DNA of 64,000 nt from Lingula anatina (taxonomy: Eukaryota; Animalia; Brachiopoda). The notes beneath the pieces were generated by a model. That model was not told where the DNA came from, ran no database searches, and saw only the letters and a list, made by a program, of their open reading frames with translations. Made by a program: the position numbers and the translations under genes. The stretch lies in the NCBI GenBank assembly GCA_051362555.1, contig CM120641.1, forward strand, positions 17,794,001 through 17,858,000. Reading direction: 5' to 3'. Positions 3,242-33,141 of this stretch are shown in pieces (the stretch's first letter is position 1; every line of letters begins with the position of its first letter).

Positions 3242-6200
3242 ATGGCGACGACCAGGCTGGTGCTTAGACGTCTCGGTCAAAGTGTCCTCAGCGCCCCTTT
3301 AAAGAAAACGAGACCGATTGGAATTTTGCAGCACAGGTGCTGCAGTAATTTTTACCCTATCAACGACGATGTATTTGGCCTAACCGACGAACAAAAACAG
3401 GTAAACATTGGTGTCCAAAAAAGACTAAGTAAAGACCTACATGTACGGCACTAAAGTGAAATTATTCACAATCCTACCGGTACTTTTCCCATAACATTAA
3501 TCTAATAAAGCTTGTCTACTTGTACATATTTCCTCTCGGAAAGATTGTAAACTTTGTGCATGTATCATATTGAATATATATTACACATAAGCATCATTTA
3601 CACTCCAATTAAATAATCCTGTACCTTCTTCATGTGCCATCACCGATGTGGTGTTTGACCAATGTTGATATTTTGCCAAAGGTTTCTGTTTCTCGCTCAT
3701 GACCAAAGATGTCATGTTGACAAAATGATCAAGGAATGCCTTTCTTTGTCTCCCACAGGTACTTTTGCCAGGTATTCTACCAATTAAGGGACCTATAAAT
3801 ATTATGTAGGATGTCCATCAAGTTCCTTACACGTTTGTATTGTACATGTATTTTGATCCAAGAACAAACTAGGTCATTGTTTTGATAACTCAAACTGAAG
3901 TGGAAAATGCAGTGGAGCAGCCTTTGTATCAATGGAGAATGACAAATTAAGACGTGATTTTCTTGTTTATCTAGGCCTTAGAAACTACAACTAACTGGGA
4001 AAACCACTTTCTTACCATTTGAACCCTTTAAAAATTTCACCTACATAAATACAATATGTCAGCCACACATTTAATTTTGCATTCAGCTACATGCACATCC
4101 TGTAAGATATGTCTATCAAACCAAACTTTCTTCACTCTTATGGTATTGGAGGAGAAAGCAGAAATTGCAATGTAAAAAGAATTAAGAATCAACCATTTCC
4201 GAGGGATAGCACAACCCCAAGTTGGTCTATCAGTCCCCAAAGTTTCAACTTCCTACCTGTAATGGTCAAGGAGGAGATAGCACAAATTACTTAAGCACAC
4301 AAAGGGATGCGCTGACTGATGGAAGGGCAGGGTAACATGATTCCTGAATTTTGTCCCAGAAGTGCAGGGATTATTAGAGATAAACTGTTTTGTTCCACTA
4401 GAGAAGTTCTACTGACAGTATTAATTTTTATAGACACAAATCATGCAATTTTGTCAAAGATGTTAATATGTATACTAGTAGACCAGAGACTCCTGCATAC
4501 TATTTTAAATTTAATAAGTAAGATTTTGTATTTATTTCAGCTGAGGGAGTTAGCATTCCAGTTTGCACAGAAAGAGCTGGCACCACATGCTGACAAAATA
4601 GACAAAGAGGATTATTTTCCAGAGATGAAGGTAAAAAAAAATTAGCTTATTGTAATGTTCACATTTTATTGAGACACTTTTCCTACACAGCCTCTTAAGA
4701 TGAACATACAAATCGTATAAAATTTCTGACTGTGATTCATCTTGATATAAAGGTATTATGTATATTGGTTTTTTGTATCAAACCAAACATGCATTTTCCT
4801 TTTGGGGTGGAGGGGGCAATTTTCTCCTACTCCCCAATCATTGATAGACCTGTCCCTGCTCTTGCATTTGATATATCATGTCATTTTTTGTTAAATTAGT
4901 TTTGCCAGATATAAGACTGCCATGTATTCCTGTACAGTTTATTTCTGAAAATAAAACAATTTTCCACAATTTTATCTGCCAACGATATTATGGATATATT
5001 TACTGTGATCATTGATCGTTTGATTGACCATGGTACAATACAGTTCCTTGGATTGACAGACCACAGAGTTTTGTCCCTGGACACCAGGGTCTAAAAATGC
5101 TGATGACCAAACTAGCTTAAATGGATAAGTCTAAGATTTTTAATATCTAGACGAGATTGTGATTTCAGTCTAACATGGGCTGGCTAAAAATCTACCTGGA
5201 CTTCAATCTTTCCAGTGACATATATTCTGGTTTACACACTTTTTTCTTTCATTGTAAGCTGAAGTGGTAAAATGTGTTAGAAAAAAGTGTTTTTACAAAC
5301 TCTCCATTGTTGAATTATTTTACAAAAATATAATTGCTTCAGGCATGTTTGTGTATCTGTTTAATTAATAAAAGTAACATGATCATTAATATACATGCAT
5401 AATTGTAAGTGCTTGTTTTTTCTTCTGTTACATAAATGAATTGAATGTCAAGTGTAATTTCTGTAATTGATGCTAAAAGACTGAATGGGGGTATACTTGT
5501 CCTGTTTGATATTGATGTTGAAATATTAAAGCTGGGACAAAAATGCACATTGTTTAGTTAACTGACTTGTTCTCATTGTAAATGTCTTGTTTTTTTTATT
5601 CTAAGCTGAGTAAATCCTTTAGTTGGTATGAAAAATCTGCTACATTGCTCATACCCATATTTTTGTTTTTAATAAAAAGGATTTCTGGAAGAAACTGGGA
5701 GAACTTGGATTTTTGGGAATTACTGCACCAGGTATAATATTAACATGATACAAAAAGTACATGCACACACAAAAAGTAATTAAATGTGAAAAAATGCCAA
5801 GATATGAGTTTAACCTGCCAAAAACCTTAGAAATAACATATGACAAATTCTTCTATTATTATCATCATCTTAAAAATGACTTGTTAATGAGCCATTCTAT
5901 ATTGATCTCAACAATGTCTTGTCATATGCTGACAAAATAGTTTGTTTTTATTTTGTTTGTTTAAGCTTGGAAGCTGAATATCCAAAATAATGGTTTAACC
6001 CCTCTCTCTCTCTCACATTCTTTTATTCCTTCCTATTTAATTTTTTTTCATCAGGAGAGTATGGTGGTGCTGAAGGCAGCTACATGGACCATGTGTTAGT
6101 GATGGAGGAGCTGTCCAGAGCACATGGTGGCATAGCGCTGAGCTATGGAGCACATTCAAACTTATGTGTCAATCAGATTGTCAGAAATGGAAATGAGAAA

Positions 6201-7363
6201 CAGAAAGCAAAATATTTGCCTAAGGTATGTGTAGAAATAGAGAACTTTTGTTAAATAAATCCAGGACCTGTTAAATGTTAAGTTCTGGAAAATGATTTGG
6301 TCAAAAATGCAGTAATTATCGTTTACCAATTGTTATGAAGTTCCATCCAAGTAAAGTTTGTAATTTATACGTTTGTATTTGGATATGCATGTGAGTCATG
6401 GGGAAGGTAATTTTAGGCTTCGTTCACATGCAATGTCTATTTTCTATTTTCTATTTTCGGTATGTCTTATGATCACGGTCTGTGCACTGAATATCCCGCC
6501 GCGTAATTACTGGCAGCGCGAGCCAGTTACTTATAGTAACTTATAGTAACTGGCTCGCGCTGCCAGTAATTACGCCGCGGGATATTCAGTGCACAGACCG
6601 TGATCATAAGACATACCGAAAATAGAAAATAGACATTGCATGTGAACGAAGCCTTATATATTAGTCTTTTATCCTCAAAAAAATAGTTAAACTAAAACTA
6701 CCAAGAAAATTTTTCTCCAAGGTTCACAGTAATTCAGTTGATAAAAATTGAGCAAACATTATTGTTTGAGTGACATAAGATAAGACTTTCTTACATAAAA
6801 AGATTTTCTACATTTCTGGCATTTTGTTTGGTGTATGGGGGACTGCCATGCATGTTAAAATTCCCTGTTGAAAAAGTCATCATTTTACTTCAAAATTTCC
6901 AATCATTATGTGTAACAGGCATTCATTTTAGCATCCCAAAGCCTGACAGTATTCCCTCTGTATTTCAGTTAATCAGTGGTGAGCACATTGGGGCCCTAGC
7001 CATGAGTGAGACCACCAGTGGCTCAGATGTGGTGTCCATGAGACTCACTGCAGAACACAAAGGTAAAAATAAAGATGACATATGTATTATACCTAAAGTA
7101 TAAATATATTTCATTTTATTATTTTTTTTGTCTGATTATTTTATCAGTGGGGCATTTTTTTTCCTTTAAAGGAAAGTAGATTATTAGTTTCTGATCTTTT
7201 TACAAGTCTAGAATTTTGATAAATGAGTTTTGAAAAAATTCTATATATGCTTTATAAGTCCCTTTGTAAAATTTCAATTGAATATGCTGATGGTTCAGTG
7301 CTTTTCTCAGACTGTCTTGATTTAGTGACATAGTTTGGAGAATTGATGACATTCTATGCCTTT

Positions 7364-7431
<68 letters not shown>

Positions 7432-10400
7432 CCACTGGAATAAGTTTTCTTGTGTTTTTATATGGTAAGTAAATATGTTTATGTTAAGTGTGATGTAATA
7501 TAATTTGTATTCTACCCCTTTCCCAGGCGACCACTATTTGCTGAATGGTACCAAGTTCTGGATCACAAATGGCCCGGAGGCAGATGTTCTTGTTGTTTAT
7601 GCTAAAACAGAGCCCAAAAAGGCACAACATGGAATTACCACTTTTCTTATTGAAAAGGTTCACTCAACTTATTATATAGCACCGTAATATGAAATAAGTA
7701 AATGATATGCCATGTTTTCAGTTTTGTATAACTACAATCATTGTCCATGGATTCTTTTTTATGTATGAGTAATCCTGGAGTTTAAATGGAATAAGGGACA
7801 TACTTTGAATCCAAATGACCAAATAACCTACTTTTGATAGACCTTTCCTAATGTTGAAATGAAAATTACTGACATTTAAAAAAAAAGTTTTTCACATTTG
7901 TCACCATTTATCGTATCTGGACTCTAGCAGTCTGTATCATTAATTTTGTTTTGCTTAGTACCTGTATTTATGGAATTTTTGATGTCTAATTTTATATATT
8001 TAGTATTTTCAAACTGACAATTTACTTGTTTTTTTTTTGTGTTTTTGTAGACAATGGAAGGTTTCAGTGTGGGAAAGAAGCTGGACAAACTGGGGATGAG
8101 GGGATCCCCCACTGGAGAACTTATTTTTGACAATGTCAAAGTGCCAGGTGATATTTTTTTTACTTTGTTTAGGTGTGGAATCCTTTTAAAGGTGTGACAG
8201 AATAGCAAGTTAAGAAAACAAACTGTAATTTTGATTTTGAAATGAATTTGCCCACCAGATAAGTTATTAAAAAATACAACAAAAAACACTGCTTGTTTCT
8301 CTAGGCATTCTTTATTTCTTGTAAGATTGAATTTTTTAACCCGGAAAAAATGAGTCATGCATGTGCTTTATGGTTTTCTCAAAACTTCCATTTTTACTTT
8401 GAAGAGGAAAATATAATTGGTGGTGAGGGGAAAGGCATATATATCCTGATGAGTGGTTTGGATATAGAGAGAGCATTAGGAGGGGCAGGATGTCTTGGGT
8501 GAGCACACCTAACACAATGAGCACAATCTGACACACCCACACGCTCCCATTAGGACAGACTCCTACACACTGCAGGGAAGGGGGTAGGTTGGTAGGGAGT
8601 CCAGAGTTCTGATGGTATGAGTCCGTTTTTAGTGCGCCCTGATAAAAGAGATAATCAATCACTGCTTTTCTAATTCTCTTGATCTGTGCTTGTAGTGGAA
8701 AATGTGGTTGGTGAGACAAACAAGGGGGTCTATGTGTTGATGAGTGGGCTTGATATTGAACGGCTGTTCCTAGCTGCTGGCCCAATAGGGTAAGTGAAGG
8801 GAGGGGGTCATCAATATTTACAACAACACTGGCATTGTGTGTGCCAGTAAAGCAAATTATATGCAGTAGTTTTTGTCTCCTTTTTTTCAGTAACATTATT
8901 ATATTGATTTTTTTCTTACATAACAGTGATTGTGGTATCCGCACATGCACAAAACAAAATTTTTGTTTGTTTTCAATATAATGGGAAAAACTGCGTTTTA
9001 ATAAAATGCTAAAAGGATTTAGAGAAGTCACATTTAACTTACAGTATTATGCAAGCTGCCTGTGATATGGCTTTCCAATATGCTCATGAAAGAGAACAAT
9101 TCAACCAGAAGATTGGAACTTTCCAGGTACTTCGAAATATTTTATCACCAAATTGAATATTCATCACTAAAATCTATCAGAAGTGCTAAAACCCTTTCTG
9201 TCAAAAATAGATTTAAAGGGATAATAACTCTTTGTATGAGATCTATATTTCACAATAAAAACATTGAGAATAACTCATAGAAATATAATATATTCTGTTT
9301 TACCACAAAAATGGCAGTTATAGCTATTATTCTGATATCTGAGCTTATCTTTAGACCATGTGACCTCCATGGATGGCTATACTCTGTTAAAATCTCTTAA
9401 GAGATTTTAACAAAAAACCAAACTTTTTAGAAAAAAACCAGGGACTAACTTTGAATGTAAAAATGGATTCATTAACCATTGGTAAGTATGGGAAAATTGT
9501 TGTTTACTCCAGGAAAATTCATTTTTTGGCCGAAACGAAGAGTTATTATCCCTTTAACAATCATTCATCAGATTTGTACAGTTTTGAACTTCAAGTTAAA
9601 GTTGTACTGTGAAATAGTTTGTCTTACAATGGAAGACTTTGTATCAGTTAAAACTATGTACAGTAATTTTTTAATTAAACTTAGTGATAATCTGTTCCCA
9701 GTTACTCCAAGGCAAGATGGCTGACATGTACACTATCCTGAATGCCTCCAGATGTTATGTGTACAATGTTGCCAGGTCCTTGGACAGAGGGAATGTCATA
9801 CCCAAGGTAAGCACAGAAATTAGAACTTAAAAACTCACTGTCAACATCCTTAGAGACTTTGTCTTGGCAGGCCAAGTGCCTCAGTGTTTGCGTCCTTGGG
9901 ACTCTGTGTAGGCAAGCCTAACACACTAAGTGGCTAAATGCTAGCACACTTTTGTTTCCTTACATATAAGAATGGATTACCAAGAATGTTGCCTCATTTT
10001 ACCAAGAGTGTATTTATTGTAATACTTTCTTGATTGTATTCACGCACGACACGCACAGAGAGAGAGGTCTGATCCTTTGTTCAGTGCAGAACTTTGTGAA
10101 ATAGACTAATGTTTTAAGCATTAGACTTTATATTGCTGTTTTAGTAAGTATTACAATGTAAGTATTACAATTAAACCATTGTATCTCTCTTTAATGTAAA
10201 ACTGTAGTGAGATGAAAAGGACAAATTACATGAAAATCAATGGACTATTTTAAGATAAAACAGCATTGTCTTACCTATTGATATTTGATTACACTTCAGG
10301 ACTGTGCTGCTGTTATACTGTACACAGCTGAAGCAGCAACAAAAGTTGCATTAGATGCCATTCAGATACTGGGTGAGTTGAACTTTTCTTTTTTTTTTAT

Positions 10401-11313
10401 GTTACAGGTAGTGAAATTGTTTGTCTTGTAAACAGTAAATTGCTCATTGTCAACTAAGTGTGCTAATACTGTCAAAGGGATAATGGGAAATATAAAACAT
10501 ATAGACCACAATGTGAATTGTACTTTTGTTGTTAGGCAGATCTCATGGTGAAGAGATATAAACAGTAGGTTCTGGTATAATATTTGCCTTGTTGCGTTGT
10601 TTAAGGAATGTCACATATGTGCCTCTACCAAGTTGTATTTATGGGGAGCGTATGATATGGAAACATTGTATAGAACTAAACCCAATCAAGCATGCAACTG
10701 GTTTCTGTCATGTCACTTCTTGAACTGACATTTAGTTTGACAGTTTGATATTATTAACAGTGAATTCAAATTACGAACATTTTCAGGATTAAAGTTAGAT
10801 ATAAATAGCCACTTTTGTTGTTATAACAACTGCCAAGGCTGTCCAGTAGTCAGTGTGTTAAGGGGTAGCAGTACACTAACATTTACAAATATTTAGTACA
10901 ATGCAGATATCGAGTAGTACAGAGCAGGCTATACAGAGACTTTTCTCCACCAAAAAAAAAAAAAAAAAAGGAAAGAAAAAGAAAAAGAAAAAAATTAAGT
11001 TTAGTCAGTGACCTTGTTGGTGCCTCCATAACTTCTTTGAAATGAAAAAAGAAGTCACATGATTTCAAGTAAAAAGCTTATGTCAATGTGGTGATTTTTT
11101 TCAGAAAAAAAAGGTGATATTCTTCAGAATGAAGACAAAAATTCATCAATTTTTGGTCTATTTTTAGGTGGAAATGGATACATTAATGATTATCCAACAG
11201 GTCGTTTCCTCAGAGATGCCAAGTTGTATGAGATAGGGGCTGGTACCAGTGAAGTGAGAAGACTAGTCATAGGCAGGAGCCTTAATGCTGAGTATGGTGT
11301 AAAATCAAGGTGA
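3242..11313 (+). CDS. IVD: Isovaleryl-CoA dehydrogenase, mitochondrial (12 exons, with a duplicated exon 8)
   Basis: Exons 3242-3400, 4541-4630, 5680-5731, 6055-6224, 6969-7062, 7527-7657, 8051-8147, [8405-8498 or 8696-8789], 9045-9126, 9702-9806, 10300-10372, 11168-11313, with consistent phases. Arg/Leu-rich targeting peptide; motifs [52 protein letters not shown], and the IVD-diagnostic YEIGAGTSE. Confidence 0.97.
6416..6653. mobile_element. Palindromic PIF/Harbinger-type MITE in IVD intron 4
   Basis: Near-perfect 238-bp inverted repeat GGCTTCGTTCACATG...CATGTGAACGAAGCC flanked by a TTA duplication (6413-6415, 6654-6656); related copy at 24381-24616. Confidence 0.85.
7367..7428. repeat. 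(TC)n microsatellite
   Basis: Pure TC dinucleotide run in IVD intron 5; it explains the spurious (RE)n ORF. Confidence 0.97.
8405..8498 (+). CDS. IVD: IVD alternative exon 8a (variant active-site exon)
   Basis: 94 nt, acceptor tttactttgaag, donor GG/gtgagc, phase 1 to 2; encodes [32 protein letters not shown]. Confidence 0.85.
8696..8789 (+). CDS. IVD: IVD alternative exon 8b (canonical-like active-site exon)
   Basis: 94 nt, acceptor tgtgcttgtag, donor GG/gtaagt, phase 1 to 2; encodes [32 protein letters not shown]. Confidence 0.92.
9217..9553. mobile_element. Kolobok-type MITE (337 bp) in IVD intron 9
   Basis: TIR AGGGATAATAACTCTT...AAGAGTTATTATCCCT, TTAA on both sides; highly similar 337-bp copy in the opposite orientation at 32471-32807. 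Confidence 0.88.
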
Positions 11314-23282: not shown

Positions 23283-24845
23283 CAGGGCTCGACATTAGCG
23301 CCTGTCCGCCTGTCCGGGACAGGTAAAAAATCAGTTCGGACAGGTGAAGTTGCAGGGTTGGCTGTCCGACGGACAGGTCATGTTTTATAAGAAATTTGGA
23401 TCAAAAATCTTTAAAAAATCATTTTTTGTTGCATACTAACGTCTTTTTGTCTCTTCCTAGACCGTACTGAAAAGAATGACCTACTTTTGGCACAAAACAC
23501 ATGCAGTCGCAAAACGAAGTCTGAGTAAACTTACCGCCAAATTATGAAAGTGAACACCCTCCAGAACTTCATCAGACAAAATTTATTCACATATCAGGTT
23601 CACTACTGAACATTTATTTAGTTAAAAATCTACGTGCTCTAGTAATAAAGACACTTCCAAAAACAGACACTACACAAGTACTGTGCTGGAGCCAGATTGG
23701 ACTGGATGAACTGGCTATATCTAGTTTGTTGTCAAGGCAACATACTGCCTGTCAATCAAACTCGTCGTATGCTATCTACTCACTATAGAAAGTGAAATCT
23801 TTGGGACAGAAGATCTTGTTGAAATGTTGTTTATTTGCCAAAATATAACCTGAAATTTTGTATGATGCTTTCTTTAATGACTCTAGCATCACCTCTGTTA
23901 TTTACTGTATAAAATTTAGTGCTGGAATATGATAAATTAACATTGCTCTCATATACCAGTGTGATATTGATGTAAGGAAGAAATTAGTAATAACAAATAT
24001 GAGAATTTAAAAAAAAAAGAAGGGGAACTTTTTTATGCTGATTTTAATAAGTTCATATATTTTTTAAAAATCAAACACGTGATAACCCCTTAAGAAGTTA
24101 AATTGTTAACATAAATATAAGTTAAGTATTATAAAATGAATATTCTTTAATTTTCATTGAACTTTATTCAAATATTATAAAATTTGAATATTTTAATAAA
24201 ATTAATTTAACAGTACCCCCTCCCCACTTCCCGCTCAGTTTTTTTTTTTTTTTTTTTTTAGCTTTGGTTTAACTTCATGTGAATCTGTAATCAAATTGCA
24301 GACTTACACTTAGTAGACCCTGTACCCCAAATCCTAGGAGAAGCCCTGATGTTAAATATCAGACTTATATGCAAGATTAAGACTCCGTTCACATGGAAAG
24401 TCTATTTTCTAAAAATCTATTTTCTATTCGCGGTATCTTGTAATCACGGTCCCTGTGCCCTGTATATCCCGAGAATTAATTACAGCTTTGGAAGTAACTG
24501 GCTCGCGCCGCCAGTAATTACGCCGCGGGATATTCAGGGCACAGGGACCGTGATTACAAAATACCGCGAATAGAAAATAGATTTTTAGAAAATAGACTTG
24601 TCATGTGAACGGGGCCTAAATCTTCAGGAGTTCACAAGTATGAAAAAACAACTTTTTATCTGAACATAAATTCACTTTAAGGTGCATTTTCGGGGCTCAT
24701 ATGATTGAATGTTTTGGTAATATATATATTAATTTAAATGTATGACTTCACATATTTATTGACAAAGTTCAAAGGTATGAATAGAAAAAAATATTGGTTT
24801 TGTGTCCGAAGGACAGGTGCTCATAAAAGTTAGTGTCTAGCCCTG
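23283..24845. mobile_element. Non-autonomous hAT-like DNA transposon (about 1.56 kb) with a nested MITE
   Basis: 15-bp imperfect TIR CAGGGCTCGACATTA / TAGTGTCTAGCCCTG; repeated subterminal CCTGTCC/GGACAGG motifs at both ends; flanks GACATT / GACATA. Confidence 0.7.
24381..24616. mobile_element. Palindromic PIF/Harbinger-type MITE, same family as 6416-6653
   Basis: GACTCCGTTCACATG...CATGTGAACGGGGCC with a TAA duplication; shares the core GTAACTGGCTCGCGC.GCCAGTAATTACGCCGCGGGATATTCAG with the IVD-intron copy. Confidence 0.85.
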
Positions 24846-32430: not shown

Positions 32431-32470
32431 AACTTCATATTTAAACTTCATCAGTCTTCATCAGAGTTAA

Positions 32471-32807
32471 AGGGATAATAACTCTTCGTTTCGGTCAAAA
32501 AATGAATTTTCCTGGAGCAAACAACAATTTTCCCATACTTACCAATGGTTAATGAATCCATTTTTACATTCAAAGTTAGTCCCTGTTTTTTTTCTAAAAA
32601 GTTTGGTTTTTTGTTAAAATCTCTTAAGAGATTTTAACAGAGTATAGCCATCAATGGAGGTCACGTGGTCTAAAGACAAGCTCAGATATCAGAATAATAT
32701 CTAAAACTGCCGTTTTTGTGATATAACAGAATATAATATATTTCTATGAGTTATTCACAATGTTTTTATTGTGAAATATAGATCTCATACGAAGAGTTAT
32801 TATCCCT
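32471..32807. mobile_element. Kolobok-type MITE (337 bp), 40 nt downstream of the POLR3F stop
   Basis: Same TIRs and TTAA flanks as 9217-9553, in reverse orientation. Confidence 0.88.
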
Positions 32808-33141
32808 TTAAATCTAGAATTCTACACATCATCTGCAATCAAGTGGTGACACTGCACATTGAGAGGTTGCCAAAATCAACTTTCTACAAAGATAACACAA
32901 TGACCAAACCTGTTAAGAAATAAAAAGGAAATGCAGGTCGTTTTAGTTTCTTGAATGTTTGTACTTTGTTCATTTAAGAGTTAAGCACTTTTGAAACTAC
33001 AGCATGGCAATGTTTTCCTGATGAAACAAGTCACTTTTTTTCCAAAGCTACTGTGACTAGCATAAATGGGCCATAAAAGATTCTAACATCAATGTGCATA
33101 TGAGTTCTCTATATGACTTTCTTTGTAATGTGATTTTGTAA

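Follow-up and report, generated by a model that had tools for sequence, protein, structure and literature searches.

Can a single acyl-CoA dehydrogenase gene give rise to two enzymes of different substrate range through a choice between two versions of the exon that encodes its catalytic base? This question is raised by the IVD gene of the brachiopod Lingula anatina, which encodes a textbook single-substrate-class enzyme and is, in humans, a disease gene. In the 64,000-nucleotide stretch of DNA analyzed here (hereafter designated the window), the Lingula gene is composed of 12 coding exons, of which exon 8 occurs twice, as 8a and 8b (Table 1).

Table 1 Features of the IVD gene around the duplicated exon 8 (positions in the window).
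Feature	Position	Strand	Basis or remark
IVD gene, ATG to stop	3242..11313	+	gene model; equals RefSeq X1/X2
Exon 7, constitutive; donor to both exon 8 copies	8051..8147	+	joints 8147>8405, 8147>8696
Exon 8a, minor copy (A256, L257, G258, G259, C262)	8405..8498	+	splice sites, RNA joints, alignment
Exon 8a splice ends, AAG acceptor and GTGAGC donor	8405..8498	+	
Exon 8a Glu254 codon, catalytic, kept	8467..8469	+	alignment to human IVD
Exon 8a Gly258 codon, in place of pocket-floor Leu	8479..8481	+	alignment; L290 role from the available text of PMC12369846
Intron between 8a and 8b, 197 nt	8499..8695	+	in-frame TGA at 8500-8502 if retained
Candidate selector	8650..8664	+	could pair with 8924..8939, looping out 8b; duplex -14.8 kcal/mol
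Exon 8b, major canonical copy; P262 kept	8696..8789	+	splice sites, RNA joints
Exon 8b splice ends, TAG acceptor and GTAAGT donor	8696..8789	+	
Exon 8b E254 codon	8758..8760	+	
Exon 8b L258 codon	8770..8772	+	
Candidate docking site	8924..8939	+	pairing partner of 8650..8664
Exon 9, constitutive; acceptor from both copies	9045..9126	+	joints 8498>9045, 8789>9045
Gly374-Ala375 (YEIGAG), last exon, common to both isoforms	11236..11241	+	G406/A407 in the available text of PMC12369846

Anatomy of the duplicated exon

A sequence-only reading of this DNA had taken the two copies for mutually exclusive exons, and the gene model bears this out: each is 94 nt long, the two are equal in phase, and both are bounded by AG/GT ends. 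The use of both copies or of neither shifts the frame and leads to a stop at codon 302 or 305, whereas either one alone gives a 430-residue open reading frame. Indeed, the model with 8b agrees with RefSeq isoform X1 (XP_013382495.1) and the model with 8a with isoform X2 (XP_013382503.1), in each case at 430 of 430 residues. Adjacency, equal length and phase, and splice sites of their own, by which mutually exclusive homologous exons are recognized, are all found in this pair.

The two copies are identical at 53 of 94 nucleotides, and 15 of 30 whole codons encode a different residue; the two full-length proteins differ at 14 residues. In the LMSGLDIER core, 6 of the 9 codons differ synonymously without a single residue change, just as had been claimed, and the uncorrected divergence over the whole exon is 0.84 for pS and 0.31 for pN. 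The pN value is 0.54 at residues 256–263, compared with 0.24 at residues 234–255; amino-acid change between the copies is concentrated in the former segment. With the numbering checked against human IVD (1ivh, residues 235–264), the retention of Glu254 and the replacement in 8a of Leu258 by Gly and of Pro262 by Cys were found as described earlier, together with two replacements missing from that description, Leu256 by Ala and Ala259 by Gly. The YEIGAG motif (G374/A375), also attributed to this IVD beforehand, is present.

No decayed third copy of exon 8 was found in the three introns (local scores of 24–27, compared with 88 for the real exon), and no second IVD copy was found within the 64-kb window. 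RefSeq contains, in addition, a separate 262-residue 8a-type Lingula model (XP_013382531.1), on a contig equal in length to that of X1–X3. Together with a merged model of 794 residues, it suggests that another, partial copy of IVD lies outside the window, perhaps an assembly duplicate. Two repeated elements lie in introns of the gene. One is a dispersed repeat in intron 9 (9208–9558), with a 96% copy at 32466–32816, on which RNA reads derived from other loci pile up in both orientations, in numbers from hundreds to thousands; the other is a self-complementary (fold-back, MITE-like) element of about 240 nt in intron 4 (6415–6654), with a 71% relative at 24377–24620.

Splicing of the two copies and its control

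Nine RNA runs were chosen by species label, and seven of them were mapped to the window. Splice joints were counted in runs X5, X6, X2, and X3 (counts below in this order), of each of which about 6% was read, with 3 reads as the floor for a joint to be listed. All four junctions proposed from the sequence were seen in RNA; a lack of 8a junction reads, which the sequence-only reading had listed among the outcomes that would refute it, was thus not borne out. Exon 7 was joined to 8a by 5, 3, 6, and 5 reads (total 19) and to 8b by 20, 11, 23, and 26 reads (total 80), so that 8a takes 19 of the 99 exon 7 joints in the four runs (19%, CI 12–28%). On the downstream side, 8b was joined to exon 9 by 27, 7, 4, and 14 reads (total 52) and 8a by 5, 0, 0, and 0 reads, the reads in X5 having five distinct starts, which gives 8a 5 of the 57 exon 9 joints. 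Direct joints from 8a to 8b and from exon 7 to exon 9 were absent among the joints listed at this floor in the four runs. In runs X1, X4, and X7, the joint from exon 7 to 8b was represented by 25, 15, and 15 reads among the joints listed.

Exon 8a is thus genuinely used and joined to exon 9, with productive use in one run only. In runs X6, X2, and X3 taken together, 8a accounts for 14 of 74 upstream joints but for 0 of 25 downstream joints (Fisher p = 0.018); because of this imbalance, much of the 8a-containing RNA may be unproductive. The read depth across the 197-nt intron after 8a was about 1–4 in runs X6, X2, X3, and X1. Joining of 8a to exon 9 in X5 compared with the other three runs did not differ significantly (p = 0.06), and the joint pattern fits sample-specific control at the step where 8b is skipped.

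The same counts lend themselves to a different explanation, in which 8a would be a tuning or damping exon that gives no new substrate, acting either as a subunit of low or no activity, by which the tetramer would be slowed, or, for the most part, through decay of the transcript by way of the retained intron. The drop of 8a from 19% of upstream joints to none of the 25 downstream joints in three runs, and the reads entering the post-8a intron, which opens with an in-frame TGA, agree with decay, and the substrate might be held less firmly in place by a catalytic helix that contains glycines. However, decay creates no need to keep the reading frame, the residues Asp252, Glu254, and Arg255, or the Leu257/Gly258 pattern over six phyla (see below), and full-length isoforms are annotated in many species, besides the splicing of 8a to exon 9 in X5. 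We therefore regard a damping or decay role as unlikely.

As to how exclusion might be enforced, exon 8b would be the default choice and 8a would be joined to exon 9 only in some samples; elsewhere, transcripts entering 8a would retain the next intron and meet an immediate stop. Double inclusion and double skipping are likely dealt with by the frameshift, the products of which would be cleared by NMD. The donor of 8b matches the consensus at 7 of 9 positions, compared with 5 of 9 for that of 8a, and the respective acceptors are TAG and AAG. The Lingula intron of 197 nt, in which a branch-like CTAAT lies close to the acceptor of 8b, is too long for simple steric exclusion; such exclusion may apply to oyster-like Logan ORFs, in which two small-258 copies (defined below) are spaced by about 56 nt.

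An intramolecular RNA pairing between the candidate selector and docking site (Table 1) is an unproven candidate lead for the control of exon choice. Its 9-bp helix (8656–8664/8924–8932) was matched by 71 of 500 shuffles, which is within chance, the best duplex between the introns after 8a and after 8b was equalled by 38 of 40 shuffles, and the candidate selector–docking pairings had an equilibrium ensemble probability of 0.016 or less; a second candidate selector lies inside a local hairpin. The 8-mer core of the selector recurs 18 nt past the donor of a Gly258 exon in two metagenome contigs (L001 and L002), and it is the sole 8-mer common to the Lingula inter-exon intron and the 329 nt following the Gly258 exon of L001. 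The folds of the inter-exon intron (178 of 200 shuffles as good) and of the region 8340–8900 (44 of 100 as good) were no better than those of shuffles. Stable local RNA hairpins were predicted at 8546–8616 and 8829–8850, one in each of the introns after 8a and 8b, with an ensemble probability above 0.99.

Occurrence and origin of the alternative exon

Relatives were collected by searching with exon 4 and with a profile of six 8a-type pieces, after which the clusters of 30 proteins were consulted. No homolog turned up when 8a was searched together with the upstream intron. The form with Gly or Ala at position 258 (hereafter designated small-258) was found in 22 named species of six phyla, namely Lingula, 16 molluscs (scallops, oysters, mussels, clams, one ark shell, two abalones, and Plakobranchus), the nemertean Tubulanus, the bryozoans Watersipora and Bugula, Priapulus, and Branchiostoma lanceolatum. 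Decay of 8a in related species, which the sequence-only reading had named as an outcome that would refute it, was looked for, and the copy was instead intact throughout this range. Moreover, equal-length isoform pairs from the same species (15 species) differ in 16 of 16 cases solely at human positions 233–263, one of the pairs, Ostrea X3, having Val258 as a third form. The gene models of Branchiostoma and Plakobranchus contain both copies in tandem with the small-258 copy first, and the amphioxus copy equals Lingula 8a at all 11 residues from Glu254. The metagenome contigs L001 and L002 each show a 94-nt Gly258 exon downstream of exon 7; another copy begins at the very end of L002.

One might still suppose that 8a is a neutral remnant of exon duplication, leakily spliced, in line with its minor use, its weaker donor, and its AAG acceptor. 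Its synonymous divergence from 8b is, however, saturated beside a far lower pN, and the conservation just described effectively refutes such a remnant, which we consider exceedingly improbable.

A tally of 203 distinct exon 8 blocks from 274 of 310 proteins, a set biased to 8a-like matches via the 8a profile, showed Leu at position 258 in 168 blocks, Gly or Ala in 26 (19 and 7, respectively), and a different residue in 9. Asp252, Glu254, and Arg255 are kept in all 26 small-258 blocks, and Leu257 occurs in 21 of these compared with 3 of the 177 others. The loss of proline ascribed earlier to 8a holds for Lingula with its Cys262 but is not general, since Pro262 is present in 14 of the 26 blocks and Cys in 12. 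The cross-species identity at residues 256–263 is 56% for the alternative copy and 67% for the canonical one. Only the canonical type was found in the vertebrate, echinoderm, hemichordate, cephalopod, nematode, and two annelid entries, a statement about protein records rather than genomes, and most of the insect records collected have a single L258-type block. Two of the 26 small-258 blocks come from IVD-like proteins of the insects Planococcus citri and Pyrocoelia, which have Ala258 in a different pattern and with no sign of an exon pair; in these the same site of the pocket was probably opened independently.

Further variation was observed among molluscs. In Logan read-through ORFs whose first block equals the Magallana X2 exon, some 56 nt separate a small-258 copy with Pro262 from another with Cys262, and from these ORFs together with isoforms X1–X3 of Ostrea edulis, oysters appear to have at least three exon 8 versions. 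The sole IVD listed for Gigantopelta aegis has a hybrid block with Leu258 and Cys262, as if the exon types had recombined. The gene model of Nucella lapillus has, at residues ~80–170, a tandem second block of exon 4, which encodes the other half of the pocket floor; in one copy, L95 and A99 are represented by Thr and Gly, respectively. The second block is possibly another alternative pocket exon, or a model artefact.

In a tree based on all 31 columns, 16 alternative exons were split from 27 canonical ones by a 95/90 branch, a grouping that draws on the trait columns themselves. When columns 256–264 were removed (234–255 only), the alternatives were ungrouped, with 10 changes, and a single clade was neither rejected nor established (AU p = 0.16). 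At residues 234–255 the copies are alike within a species in amphioxus (0.86) and Pecten (0.82), compared with about 0.7 to others, a likeness suggestive of either gene conversion or duplications that took place separately. A single bilaterian origin followed by losses is likely, if unproven, and is the simpler reading because the copy order and the residue signature are shared. The divergence spanned by the carriers is more than 500 million years old.

Substrate pocket of the 8a form and its meaning

According to the available text of PMC12369846, L127 and L290 of human IVD (L95 and L258 in mature numbering) form the bottleneck by which chains of C7 or more are kept out, G406 and A407 give room for the branch, and M280, D284, and R287 (Met248, Asp252, and Arg255 in mature numbering) hold CoA. 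All these residues are kept by alignment in the 8a protein except L290 (Leu258); the L95/L258 bottleneck, which limits chains to C4–C6 in the IVD subfamily, is complete with 8b, whereas 8a has Gly258 in place of its second leucine. Comparison with human IVD (PDB 1ivh, 8sgr, and 9jq3-5) gave the same Glu254, G374/A375, L95/A99/L103, and CoA residues in Lingula, whereas in place of the human Leu258 the second Lingula exon brings Gly258 together with A256, L257, G259, and C262. The marks of the IVD subfamily, helix-G Glu254 and Gly-Ala at the MCAD Tyr-Glu position, are found in both isoforms, the best PDB match by sequence is human IVD (E = 5e-173), and NCBIfam scores did not separate the two isoforms. 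An AF2 model of the 8a form (pLDDT 83.4) retains the IVD fold, with a helix at 283–311 and a TM score of 0.87 to human IVD 8sgr at 65% identity; 17 of the 24 rows in its alignment are not small-258 forms, so the local change is poorly informed. Judged from its sequence, the 8a protein belongs with the IVDs by ancestry but, by its pocket, cannot be classed as a typical one. The enlarged 8a pocket proposed beforehand gains substance from the bottleneck role assigned to L127/L290 in the available text of PMC12369846, but productive splicing of 8a to exon 9 stood in one of four runs only.

Because the bottleneck, branch, and CoA residues are kept in 8a except L290, we favor the view that the exon pair is probably a splice switch giving an active enzyme with a deeper pocket for longer, β-branched acyl-CoAs. 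One IVD gene would splice either 8b (major, with the leucine floor) or 8a (minor, with Gly258). The change of Leu258 to Gly or Ala would take away half of the L95/L258 bottleneck, G374/A375 would still accommodate a β-methyl group, and, with Leu256 lost and Leu257 gained in concert, helix G would pack anew about the cavity so formed. The preferred substrates of the 8a form would be C7 or longer, most simply β-methyl-branched, and isoprenoid-type chains, for example 3,7-dimethyloctanoyl or citronellyl-like ones, are our guess. The lower uniformity at residues 256–263 and the division of position 262 between Pro and Cys (14 versus 12) do not, however, point to one sharp substrate, and the guess of algal isoprenoids is weakened because the predators Priapulus and Tubulanus are among the carriers.

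Alternatively, 8a could alter the specificity for the branch and not for chain length, accepting for example 2-methylbutyryl- or isobutyryl-CoA and backing up other branched-chain dehydrogenases. The repacking at 256–257 could shift Glu254 relative to C-alpha, and an IVD-derived 2-methylbutyryl-CoA dehydrogenase is said to have been described in potato by Goetzman in 2005. Nevertheless, the branch-room residues G374/A375 are constitutive and unchanged, and L258 sets depth according to the available text of PMC12369846; a change of branch specificity is very improbable.

By analogy with coq-2a/e, 8a might instead serve low-oxygen or sulfidic life, either as a reverse enoyl-CoA reductase in rhodoquinone-type fermentation or through tolerance of CoA-persulfide, which we consider decidedly unlikely. 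Many small-258 carriers are burrowing or intertidal, and a Cys lies in the catalytic helix in 12 of the 26 small-258 blocks. In helminths, molluscs, and annelids, coq-2 changes to its anaerobic substrate by way of mutually exclusive exons, as reported in the available text of PMC7434440. On the other hand, the RQ-making nematodes Toxocara, Parascaris, Ascaris, Ancylostoma, and Necator show L258 only, as do two annelids, absence from protein collections being weak evidence. Amphioxus and Priapulus carry the copy yet are not among the RQ makers listed in the available text of PMC7434440, and the available text of the RQ-enzyme survey PMC8659336 contains 0 mentions of ivd-1 and isovaleryl. Exon 8, moreover, holds no FAD contacts.

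The preferred reading, a switch of pocket depth, has counterparts in other enzymes. In PKM1/PKM2 and ketohexokinase A/C, tandem mutually exclusive exons of equal length give two kinetic forms of one enzyme; these cases are vertebrate and alter allostery or affinity, whereas the exon exchanged in IVD is the very one that encodes the catalytic base, together with the pocket floor. VLCAD has glycines at its pocket floor. Smaller floor residues go with longer-chain enzymes among the other ACADs, as we propose for 8a, but there the forms come from separate genes and in IVD from splicing. Chain length is governed in other ACADs by T121 and V284 of MCAD and the Pro132 region of LCAD (available text of PMC10925408). 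Similar in kind are exons 6a/6e of coq-2, which likewise form a homologous, mutually exclusive internal pair and reshape the core of an enzyme, molluscs included, although the switch between UQ and RQ is proven genetically and that of IVD is proposed; coq-2e occurs in nematodes and flatworms, whereas the IVD copy was unseen in nematode protein records and is present in amphioxus and Priapulus (coq-2 data from the available text of PMC7434440).

The exon-swap architecture is of a known kind, and the IVD isoforms stand unremarked in RefSeq, where X1/X2(/X3) of Lingula, bivalves, abalones, Tubulanus, Watersipora, and Priapulus are the same isoforms by automatic annotation only. Targeted searches of the literature outside subscription journals and supplements found no description of alternative catalytic exons for IVD, and tables of splicing surveys could list the event. 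What the present analysis shows directly is the junction evidence and a distribution extending to Ecdysozoa and Chordata.

A splice choice in the catalytic helix that is kept in brachiopods, molluscs, bryozoans, nemerteans, priapulids, and amphioxus is a sign of a metabolic need of these animals that has gone unrecognized, and the exon pair offers a natural test of the claim that L95 and L258 fix chain length. More tentatively, and on balance doubtfully, the IVD gene of the bilaterian ancestor might have carried two or three catalytic exons in an array for alternative use (canonical; Gly258/Pro262; Gly-Ala258/Cys262), coding for one or two undescribed mitochondrial acyl-CoA dehydrogenase activities toward longer β-branched, isoprenoid-type chains, picked by tissue or condition via intronic RNA pairing and lost in vertebrates, insects, and nematodes. 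If this ancestral array is true, it would amount to a hidden branch of animal acyl-CoA catabolism that those three lineages have lost.
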